From positions 3,168,001 to 3,232,000 of the forward strand of contig OY760937.1 of NCBI GenBank assembly GCA_963664225.1: a DNA stretch of 64,000 nucleotides. The letters run 5' to 3'. This document shows, piece after piece, positions 3,399 through 16,391 of the stretch. Numbering within the stretch: position 1 is the first letter of the stretch; each line of letters starts with the position of its first letter. The notes below the pieces were generated by a model. The model did not search any database, had not been told where the DNA came from, and saw only the letters and a list, made by a program, of their open reading frames with translations. Source of the stretch: Verrucomicrobiia bacterium (GTDB lineage Bacteria; Verrucomicrobiota; Verrucomicrobiia; Limisphaerales; UBA1319). The translations under genes and the position numbers were made by a program.

Positions 3399-3549
3399 AG
3401 GTGCAGGAAAAAATTCTTCGGCAAGCGAGAAAGTCCTTATGAAGGGCATGTGAGTCTATACGAAACAAATATAGCAAGAGTTTCGGGATTGGCCGGGCGC
3501 CGATTGAGGGTCCGGCAAAAGTCAGATCTGAAAGGACGACCGCCCTCAT
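3399..3549 (+). mobile_element. Left end of MITE family (degenerate TIR AGGTGCAGGAAAAAATTC)
   Basis: Near-identical to 16071-16220; matching right end not found. Confidence 0.6.
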
Positions 3550-4078
3550 GGAATGACGACCGCCCTCCCCATGAACCCAAAGTGGGGTGTCTTTCGTTAC
3601 AAGTTACATGGAAAGAAGTGGGTGAAGAAACATCAACATGGATAGGCAGGATGAGCAGGATATTTGACCACTGATATCACGGACGAGAAAGGAAATGGAT
3701 AATTGAGAATTTTAAAAAAAGACAAACATCCAATGGATGGGGATAGGCAGGGGAAAATCCGCAGATGAAACTGAGAAACGCAGATTAGGAGAACGAGAAG
3801 AGGGTGGATTTTGAAACCGCGAATGAACGTCAATAATTGGGGATCGGGAAAAAGGAATTGAACCACGAAATATGCGAAATGGAAAAAAGGATTGACGCAC
3901 GCCCTCATCCCGACCTTCTCCCCCAGGAGAAGGAGTAGTGTTGCGAGCCCTGGATTTATTGAACGGTTTGGAGGATGCCGCCGCGTGGGGTTGGTATAGG
4001 AGGAAAATATTAGTTGGTATGGAAAAAAGGATTGACGCACGCCCTCATCCCGACCTTCTCCCCCAGGAGCAACGGTAT

Positions 4079-5002
4079 TTAATTTGAGAGTGCAAAATCT
4101 GCGTTTTTGAGGATTTGGTTCATCAGGACAATGAGTTTGCGCATGACGGCGGTGAGCGCGACTTTGGCGGGCTTGCCCGCCAATCGGAGTCGTTCGTAGA
4201 ACTCCTTGAGTTGGCGATTGCAGCGCGCAGCCACCAGGGCGGCCATGTAGAGGGCACGTCTAACGGCGGCTCTTCCGCCACCGATGGAGCGGCGGCCTTG
4301 CCACTGGCCGCTTTCTCGAGGATGTGGAGCCAGTCCGGCCAAGGCGGCGGCCTGCCCCCGATTGAGCGTGCCCAACTCGGGCAGCTCAGCCAAAACCCCC
4401 AAGGCGGTAATCGCGCCCACCCCGGTGATGGCTTCGAGTTTTTTTGCGCGTTCATCCAGTTCTGTGGTTTTCTGGCGCAGCGCTTTGAGTTGGGTCTCGA
4501 TATGCTCCAGATCCCGTTCCAATCGACGCAGCAGGCTCTGGGCCTGGCGGCGCAACTTGGGCAGCGTGAGGCGTTCGATCTGATGGCGCTGGCTAATAAG
4601 CAGATCAAGGATCTGAGTGCGGCGGCGAACCAGTTCGGTCAACTGCTCCTCCACCTCGGAACGCGCGGGCGTGGGTTTGGGGGCGAAGGCCTGCCCATAG
4701 GCGGAGAGGACGGCGGCATCTATACGGTCGGTTTTGGCCCGTTGTCCCTGGGCGCGGGCGGGATTGATGATGCTGACAGGAATGCTGGCATGATGGAGGG
4801 CGTCAGCCACCTCACGCTCGTAGCCGCCGGTGGCTTCACAGATGACGTGAGCGCCGGGATGCTGCGCCAGGAGTTTGACGAGCTGGCGATGACCGGCGGC
4901 GGTATTGGGCAGATGGTGGGAACGACCGGCCAGTTGGAGATCAAGACTCAGCTTGGCAATATCCAAACCAGCGTAGATAGTGGTCATAGTGTTCTGGCTC
5001 AT
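4079..5002 (-). CDS. IS110 transposase/bridge recombinase (DEDD RuvC-like + Tnp domain)
   Basis: Motifs GLDIAK, CEATGGYE, AKTDRID, GLAPHPRESG, GGRAAVRRALYM. Confidence 0.93.
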   Translation of the reverse strand: MSQNTMTTIYAGLDIAKLSLDLQLAGRSHHLPNTAAGHRQLVKLLAQHPGAHVICEATGGYEREVADALHHASIPVSIINPARAQGQRAKTDRIDAAVLSAYGQAFAPKPTPARSEVEEQLTELVRRRTQILDLLISQRHQIERLTLPKLRRQAQSLLRRLERDLEHIETQLKALRQKTTELDERAKKLEAITGVGAITALGVLAELPELGTLNRGQAAALAGLAPHPRESGQWQGRRSIGGGRAAVRRALYMAALVAARCNRQLKEFYERLRLAGKPAKVALTAVMRKLIVLMNQILKNADFALSN

Positions 5003-5222
5003 TCTTGTAAATACGAGCAGGCCTTGGTGGGCCGCTCAAGCAACGGTTCGAGTTTAGGACACAGGCACGAACGGCTCTGGCTCCTCGCGCATTTGGTTAA
5101 AAACCAATGCAAGAAGGAAACGAGCTCGTCCGCGCCACTGTCCTGCCGCCTGCAGGCGGCAGGACAGTTCCATCTATTCCGTCTTTTCAAACAAAACAAG
5201 AATAGATGGAAAATCAGATACA
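5003..5222 (-). ncRNA. Putative bridge RNA of IS110 #1
   Basis: Hairpins at 5138-5167 and 5168-5211; target and donor guide segments match the junction sequences (see findings). Confidence 0.8.
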
Positions 5223-5624
5223 AGAAGGAGGAGTATTGGGAGATGTCGGTGTGTTTGGATGGTTTGGGAGGTGCCGCCGCGTGGGTTTGGTATAGGAGGA
5301 AAATATCAGTTGGTATGGAAAAAAGGAATGACGCACGCCATCATCACGGCTAAGCGCTGGCATCCCTGCCAGGATGCTTGAAGGGAATTGTTTGAATGGG
5401 AGAAGGGAAGAATGTGGGTTTTACGAATTAGAGCAGGCCATCGGATTATCGAGAGGGCTAGAAATATTCAAGCTTCCCTCCATTTGAATGGTGCGCCGTC
5501 TAAAGACGGGACTCCATACCCCGGAACGCCGCGCGCCGAGAATGACGTCACCCATGGCATTACACTTTTGGCTGCAGGATCGTTGGTTTCCAGACCAGGG
5601 GATTAGAGTGGGTTTGAGACGGTG

Positions 5625-5670
5625 AGCGGATTGGAAATCCGCGATACGGCAGGTTTGAAACCTGCGCTAC
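5625..5670 (-). repeat. GTAG-type REP-like double hairpin
   Basis: Minus strand reads GTAGCGCAGGTTTCAAACCTGCCGTATCGCGGATTTCCAATCCGCT. Confidence 0.65.
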
Positions 5671-5761
5671 GGGTTGCGGTGTGGACGCGCGGGGGATTGA
5701 TTAAGTGTATGGCATGCCGTTGCGCTTTTTGGCCGAAAAGGTTCGTTAAACAGGTTCCAAC

Positions 5762-5793
5762 AAAAAAGGGGCTGCCGTTGTGGTGGCAGCCCC
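5762..5793 (-). terminator. Intrinsic terminator of the beta-CASP gene
   Basis: GGGGCTGCC..GGCAGCCCC stem followed by a T-tract on the minus strand. Confidence 0.8.
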
Positions 5794-5816
5794 ATGCGTC
5801 ATGTTTCAGAAGAGGA

Positions 5817-16070: not shown

Positions 16071-16391
16071 GGGTGCATCACAATATTCTTCGGCAAGCGA
16101 AAAAGTCCTTAAAAAGGGCATGCGAGTATATACGAAACAAATATAGCAAGAGTTTCGGGAATGGCCGGGCGCCGATCGAGGGTCCGGCAAAAGTCAGATA
16201 TGAAAGGACGACCGCCCTCATCCCGGCCTTCTCCCCCAGGAGAAGGAGGAGTATTGCGAGCCCTGGGTTTATTGCACGGTTTGGAGGATGCCACCGCGCC
16301 GGACTACATGCCCCACACCGCCGACTGGCGTCCTGGCTGGGTTCATACGGTTTAGGCTTTTTACCAGCTTCCTGAATTTTGTCGTGCGTAC
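16071..16391. mobile_element. MITE (321 bp) with 9-bp TSD ATTTGTGAC and internal REP
   Basis: Degenerate TIRs GGGTGCATCACAATATTC / GAATTTTGTCGTGCGTAC; TSD at 16062-16070 and 16392-16400. Confidence 0.8.

Follow-up and report, generated by a model that had tools for sequence, protein, structure and literature searches.

An IS110-group insertion sequence with a predicted bridge RNA in a host repeat of a Verrucomicrobia genome, and its natural variants with other target loops

Introduction

How does an insertion sequence come to lie within one unit of a many-copy host repeat, and does its own non-coding end specify that site? The question arises from a locus on the minus strand of the window (the whole 64,000-nucleotide stretch of DNA that was analyzed), which a first-pass annotation, made from the letters alone, had described as an IS110 element with a readable bridge RNA directed to a REP-like repeat.

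According to the accessible text of the sources cited here, the non-coding left end is much longer than the right one in the IS110 group, and the reverse holds for the IS1111 group (PMC11208160). For 85.7% of IS110-group elements, Durrant et al. predicted a bridge RNA, and they reported natural concordance between the LTG and RTG guides and the target (PMC11208160). The bridge RNA of IS621, an IS110-group element of E. coli, is 177 nt long and comprises a 5' stem-loop, the TBL (nt 34–98), and the DBL (nt 110–177), and "handshake" guides, dinucleotides located 3' of RTG and RDG, pair with positions 6–7 of the non-cognate DNA (PMC11208158). Insertion of IS110-family elements into repetitive extragenic palindromes has been described for IS621 (PMC11208160), for ISPpu10, all insertions of which fall in copies of a conserved intergenic stem-loop repeat and for which the hairpin is reported to contribute (bioRxiv 10.64898/2026.03.19.712850), and for the REP-targeting ISPpu9 of Pseudomonas putida (PMC12288879).

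Results

Boundaries of the element and its target repeat

The insertion sequence is 1,155 bp long and occupies positions 5222..4068 of the minus strand. It consists of a DEDD/Tnp_20 recombinase gene, a left end of 235 nt (5222-4988, up to the conserved ATG), a right end of 11 nt past the stop codon, core included, and a CT core at each junction; the proportion of the two ends (235 versus 11 nt) is that of the IS110 group. Read on the minus strand, the left junction consists of the left target half (LT) CCTCCTT (5231-5225), the core CT (5224-5223), and the left-end terminus, which begins with TGTATC at 5222, represents the right donor half, and together with an upstream hairpin (approximately 5210-5169, helices 1 and 2) spans 5169..5222. 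The right end (4068..4078) comprises the left donor half ACCGTTG (to 4070) and the right CT core (4069-4068). It is followed by the flank CCTGG (4067-4063); positions 4030..4067 hold the right half of the target, CCT..., and, from the palindrome of the host repeat, the 3' arm (CCTGGGGGAGAAGG...). A minus-strand reading of 3700-5500 agreed base for base with the donor junction ACCGTTG-CT-TGTAT and the target CCTCCTT-CT-CCTGG proposed in the first-pass annotation.

The interrupted sequence is a host repeat of about 110 nt present in at least 31 copies, sometimes in tandem (e.g., at 157.7–158.4 kb). It contains an 8-bp palindrome, CCTTCTCC-TGGG-GGAGAAGG, and the CT core is located in the 5' arm, two bases off the loop. 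The description of the target as "REP-like" was therefore apt, since the target is one arm of this palindrome in a repeat found at least 31 times. The 16-mer around the site, CTCCTTCTCCTGGGGG, has 31 unoccupied occurrences in the genome. Two of them lie on the minus strand of the window, one in the next repeat unit (3920..3935, core 3929-3928) and one with an LT identical to that of the occupied site (16233..16248, core 16242-16241); these are the empty targets that had been predicted at 3928 and 16241. At 16150-16232 (minus strand) and at least 10 other sites of the genome, the host repeat is followed by a conserved unit of about 70 nt (...GGTCGTCCTTTCA.ATCTGAC.TTTGCCGGACCCTCAATCGG...CCATTCCCGAAACTC...); other copies of the repeat continue differently, and the repeat therefore appears to be modular or to adjoin another small mobile element.

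Copies of the element in the genome and relatives elsewhere

The genome, a single contig of 5.78 Mb with 56% GC, contains five full copies of the element. The window copy (A) and copies B and C are 98–100% identical and share the same target loop, while D and E are 92% identical to A. The sequence common to both junctions was CT only in 5/5 copies, with no other target-site duplication, and the rejoined flanks of copy A gave exactly the sequence of an empty repeat. Copies A and C occupy an identical position of the same host repeat (...AATACTCCTCCTT-CT-CCTGGGGG...), and the LT is identical in copy A, in the flank of copy C, and in empty repeat copies. Copy B lies outside the repeat in a pyrimidine-rich look-alike site, TTCCTTC-CT-CCTCCCC, and copies D (GAGTTCC-CT-CCCTGC) and E (CAGCTCC-CT-CCCCGC) occupy sites unrelated in sequence to the A/C repeat. 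The expectation that the other copies would map to the same REP position thus held for A and C; B is at a look-alike site and D and E are elsewhere, but the target loop of the latter two fits their own flanks.

A second IS110 element, designated IS-2, has 55% protein identity to the first and is present in five near-identical copies (L026–L030, G000:C1: 2332272-2333186(-), 1761753-1762661(-), 2568941-2569849(-), 2578176-2579084(-), and 3487387-3488295(+)), with CT at all junctions. All of them interrupt a different host repeat, ...GTAGCGCAG(A/G)(C/T)TTCCA(A/G)(C/T)-CT-GCCGT.... A close relative at E ≤ 1e-40 was found in 0/9 other genomes of the same family, and the comparative data therefore came from more distant contigs of metagenome-assembled genomes (MAGs). 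They provided nine outside loci, mostly from Verrucomicrobia MAGs, the proteins of which are 60–89% identical to that of copy B over the best segment; these relatives also have the CT core at both junctions. One relative, L035, comes from a contig labelled as a Bifidobacteriaceae MAG, and its left end is missing 11 nt, namely RTG together with some of the 3' strand of the stem in the target module, and it therefore represents a degenerate copy; since its label is at odds with the other relatives, which belong to Verrucomicrobia, the contig may be mis-binned.

Recombinase gene and state of the window copy

The open reading frame at 4079-5002 (minus strand) matched PF01548 (DEDD_Tnp_IS110), with a score of 56.9 bits versus 70.5 bits for copy B, and PF02371 (Transposase_20), with 70.7 bits. 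The intact 308-aa protein of copy B aligned over residues 5–301 with the ISCro4 recombinase (PDB 9t56, E = 5.6e-39), which was the best solved-structure match and was compared by protein only, and with IS621 (8wt6, E = 7.6e-39). Together with the two Pfam matches, these alignments at E of about 1e-39 settled the IS110 identity. The motifs GLD, CEAT, KTDRIDA, and RESG of copy B align with the corresponding motifs of ISCro4 and, judged by eye from this alignment, would be equivalent to D11, E60, D102, D105, and S241 of IS621. In the first-pass annotation, RDG was placed just before the ATG of the gene; its position was correct, but at the ATG meant there (5002-5000), copies D and E as well as L033–L035 read AAG or AGG. 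Because this codon is not conserved, the start codon is likely the conserved ATG at 4987-4985 (MTTIYAGLD...), and the gene then extends over 4079..4987 (minus strand) and encodes 302 aa comprising both domains.

Copy A alone is missing 18 bp near 4752, between two CGCCCGCG repeats. This in-frame deletion removes six residues within PARVRHFARA, 9–14 residues N-terminal of KTDRIDA (the KTDxxDA aspartates) in the RuvC domain, and the ISCro4 alignment is gap-free across this segment. The metagenome contigs X4 and X5 retain the 18 bases at 4752/4754. Having lost six codons of a conserved region, the window copy is probably not autonomous and probably needs the recombinase of a sister copy, which would come from copy B, with the same bridge RNA, or from copies D and E. 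In copy C (G000:C1:1738410-1739596, locus L003/L022), a TAC-to-TAG change ends the protein at 269 aa. The deletion in A and the truncation in C leave B, D, and E as the copies with intact genes. Copy C has an A-type left end, yet a run of mid-gene substitutions is common to it and to D and E; it looks like a mosaic that arose by recombination between the two variants.

These defects bear on whether the window copy is a dead relic of a bridge-RNA-guided family, immobile even with help and with its RNA no longer made. We consider this rather unlikely. It would fit the private 18-bp deletion in the RuvC domain and the premature TAG in copy C, which indicates that decay of the copies is under way. 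It would also fit the result of a promoter search, in which no sigma-70-like promoter (≥8/12 matches) was recognized in the integrated left end on the minus strand or in the computed junction of the right and left ends (RE-LE); this negative evidence is weak because the scan was limited to the E. coli-type consensus. On the other side, the deletion is in frame and the remaining reading frame is open, while copy A is 100% identical to copy B, the gene of which is intact, in its left end, its two termini, and its core, and the bridge RNA and recombinase of IS621 are able to act in trans, as stated in the accessible text of PMC11208160. A window copy that is probably not autonomous and would still be mobilizable by a sister recombinase remains our preferred reading.

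A junction promoter noticed by eye, TTGCTT + 17 nt + TATTCT, was rejected, as it has only 7/12 matches and is not conserved in relatives. Public runs (24 listed, all Logan contigs) were represented in the comparison by X1, X2, X4, and X5, which were fragmentary; neither an RE-LE junction nor a contig cleanly spanning an empty site was among them, and they were thus silent on excision and expression. Contig joints such as that from 3994 to 5233 in X4 are explained by likeness among the repeat units.

Predicted fold of the left end

Folding with RNAalifold gave a 5' stem-loop followed by two modules, each composed of a stem, an internal loop, and a hairpin, over approximately 5168..4989, about 180 nt; the single-sequence fold of the left end alone had z = -9.9. 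All parts are on the minus strand. The predicted 5' stem-loop has 14 bp (5137..5168, helix 3). The target-binding module (5064..5136) has a base stem 5136-5122/5077-5064 with a bulged A5126, and its loop carries LTG (5120-5112), a hairpin (5110-5089), RTG (5085-5081), and the candidate handshake dinucleotide CC (5080-5079). The donor-binding module (4989..5063) has a base stem 5063-5050/5000-4989 and carries LDG (5047-5037), a hairpin (5038-5014 in this fold, 5037-5015 in the first-pass annotation), RDG (5009-5004), and the candidate handshake dinucleotide AA (5003-5002). All four guides are located in the two internal loops, on strands left unpaired.

The comparative alignment included nine left ends, those of copies A and D and of IS-2, plus six from the nine loci in other genomes. 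Copies B, C, and E were omitted as near-identical to A or D, L035 because of the deleted RTG strand, and L037 and L039 because they have no left end. The LTG:RTG and LDG:RDG pairs, which are trivial, were taken out before counting, leaving 65 pairs. Over the nine left ends, 95.0% of these were paired, and 28/65 had changes on both sides. None of 500 shuffles reached either value (0/500), and slid alignments had 35–43% of cells paired and 2–7 compensated pairs. The 5' stem-loop (helix 3) showed compensatory changes at 10/14 pairs with 99% of cells paired, and the 11 pairs of the upstream hairpin (helices 1 and 2) had changes on both sides in 6. The stems of the donor module (helices 6–8) are mostly invariant, and the support from covariation is weaker for this module because its stems hardly vary. 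The left end thus folds into a bridge-RNA architecture with the guides inside internal loops, as the first-pass annotation had anticipated, and covariation in nine left ends agrees with it.

The hairpin at 5169-5210 (minus strand), which separates the left-end terminus from the 5' stem-loop, is likewise conserved with compensatory changes. Such a part is absent from the accessible text of the IS621 descriptions (PMC11208160, PMC11208158); it could be part of the transcript, a promoter, or a site of end recognition. A scan of 3500-5800 against Rfam found no match to a bridge-RNA family. Matches to mir-4433 and mir-4773 at 5136-5169 fell on the perfect hairpin at chance level and were discarded. 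Elsewhere in the window, at 3532-3567 (minus strand), a G+C-rich hairpin matched the Rfam family toga_FSE with 26.7 bits versus a gathering score of 40, almost certainly by chance.

Guide sequences of the window copy and its variants

In the window copy, LTG reads UUUCCUUCU and is identical to the target at 7/9 positions; the other two are a guide U opposite a top-strand C and are U:G-compatible. RTG, AGGAG, is the reverse complement of CT+CCT. On the donor side, LDG (ACCGUUGCUUG) matches the RE-core-LE junction at 11/11 positions, and RDG, UACAAG, is the reverse complement of CT+TGTA (6/6). Within the 64-kb window, the 11-mer of LDG is found a single time, versus 0.05 expected over both strands, and the 11/11 and 6/6 matches are preserved in all five copies. 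Each guide and both module hairpins were found where the first-pass annotation had located them, with the matches it had claimed.

The candidate handshake of the target loop reads CC or CA, and in every element its first C is able to pair with the G at donor position 7. The AA of the donor loop can pair with target positions 6–7 (TT) of A and C and not with those of B, D, and E; it is unchanged in D and E, the targets of which read CC at these positions.

Copies D and E carry another target loop, with LTG CCAUUCCCU and RTG GGGAG. The flanks follow this difference, being CT+CCT in A, B, and C versus CT+CCC in D and E, in agreement with AGGAG and GGGAG, respectively. The left ends of A and D differ at 19/234 positions, 11/19 of which fall within the 22 positions of the target loop. 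All seven non-core positions of LTG are changed and three positions differ in the RTG-side loop strand, while the LDG strand is unchanged (0/11). The first 86 nt, including the terminus, the upstream hairpin, and the 5' stem-loop, are also identical, and there are few changes elsewhere.

IS-2 has the same left-end architecture as the window element and a different target loop, with LTG UUCCAAUCU and the RTG-side strand GUACGGCAG (RTG ..ACGGCAG). Its sites, TTCCAAC or TTCCAGT-CT-GCCGT..., match on the right target side at 7–9/9 positions. The LDG of IS-2 (ACCGUUACCAG) fits its junction over the first 6 nt only. In L038, RTG CCCGUAG fits CT+ACGGG at 7/7 positions. The sites of IS-2 and of seven relatives from MAGs likewise fit their own guides. 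In all seven relatives, L031–L036 and L038, the LDG base expected to be the C that begins the core is A (U in L038), and RDG (UGCAAG versus CTTGTA) forms a G:T wobble; the five copies of the window element are fully complementary.

Fit of guides to insertion sites

Fourteen insertion sites were scored against eight guide types, omitting L033, L036 (flank cut by the contig end), and L035. Identity between guides and their cognate sites averaged 7.9/10 non-core positions versus 4.3 for the 98 non-cognate pairings, and the highest non-cognate score, 9, was reached by two pairings. With a small number of sites, some of them related, these scores serve as corroboration and not as a formal statistic. 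The three positions to the right of the core (RT positions 10–12) match in 14/14 sites. LTG pairing is imperfect, with 3–6/7 Watson–Crick pairs per site over the 14 sites. The LT of A and C has five Watson–Crick and two U:G pairs of 7, that of B four Watson–Crick pairs, two wobbles, and one mismatch, that of D four Watson–Crick pairs and three mismatches, and that of E four Watson–Crick pairs, one wobble, and two mismatches. The genome contains no perfect Watson–Crick site for the A-type loop; with wobbles allowed, there are 143 sites, and the actual 12-mer target has 19 copies. Two perfect D-type sites exist in the genome, both unoccupied.

It is highly improbable that the left-end structure is a mere 5' UTR or protein-binding end, with the protein picking the site and the guide-like matches simply reflecting the terminal sequence and a target rich in pyrimidines. 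In favor of this reading, part of the complementarity arises trivially within the element, since LTG is able to pair with RTG, and the left-end terminus with RDG; LTG also matches imperfectly, and the 3' stem of the donor module adjoins the start codon. Against it, eight target loops fit their own flanks better than those of others by the margin given above, the A–D changes are concentrated in loop strands while the stems still pair, and the RTGs of L038 and IS-2 match very different flanks.

Discussion

We are confident that positions 5222..4068 of the minus strand represent an IS110-group insertion sequence that encodes, in its left end, an approximately 180-nt bridge RNA; the element would act in an IS621-like manner and would depend on a recombinase provided in trans. 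For transcription of the bridge RNA, the catalytic steps, and activity, we infer from the analogy with IS621 the following course. The element would be excised as a circle with its right and left ends joined at the CT core. In the recombinase-bound bridge RNA, base pairs would form between the donor loop (LDG/RDG) and the RE-LE junction, and likewise between the site CCTCCTT-CT-CCT and the target loop (LTG/RTG), and strands would be exchanged at the core via a serine-linked intermediate. The target is located in the 5' palindrome arm of a many-copy host repeat, so the genome would offer many harmless landing sites. Membership in the family and the natural covariation of guides with flanks suggest that the recombinase is programmable, as the first-pass annotation had stated outright.

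The element resembles IS621 in its DEDD RuvC-like and Tnp recombinase, the CT core, and the long RNA-bearing left end. According to the accessible text of PMC11208160 and PMC11208158, the likeness extends to the order of parts (5' stem-loop; target module with stem, LTG, hairpin, and RTG; donor module with stem, LDG, hairpin, and RDG), to a 9-nt LTG that includes the core, and to the use of a repetitive extragenic palindrome as a target. The module sizes, about 32 + 73 + 75 nt, also resemble those in IS621's bridge RNA. Differences from IS621 are a distant protein from another phylum (the relatives here are of Verrucomicrobia type), an RTG that pairs over 5 nt (core + 3) versus 4 in the accessible IS621 description, the extra conserved hairpin between the terminus and the 5' stem-loop, a junction in which no promoter of the E. 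coli-type consensus was recognized, and a different repeat as the target. Insertion into copies of a conserved intergenic stem-loop repeat is shared with ISPpu10 and ISPpu9 of P. putida, as far as the accessible text of their descriptions goes; here, in contrast, the core falls within the palindrome's 5' arm, and copy B is outside the repeat.

The architecture is already well described, and the window element leaves knowledge of the mechanism unchanged. Its additions are a panel of three guide programmes, a target loop that differs between A and D in a block-like manner, and a warning of the deletion in the window recombinase; for cloning, copy B, D, or E should be chosen and not the window copy. 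The distribution of A–D differences allows the idea, which we regard as a long shot, that the target loop was replaced as a block within one genome, by cassette-like exchange between IS110 relatives or by templated rewriting, and not by drift through point mutations. If so, bridge-RNA elements would change their targets in jumps.

The locus provides a natural bridge-RNA element, annotated in full, from a phylum that lies beyond the usual model organisms, and its natural insertions tolerate U:G pairs and mismatches at the 5' end of LTG. The three guide programmes present in one complete genome (A-type, D-type, and IS-2), each with sites of its own, constitute a natural specificity panel for bridge recombinases.
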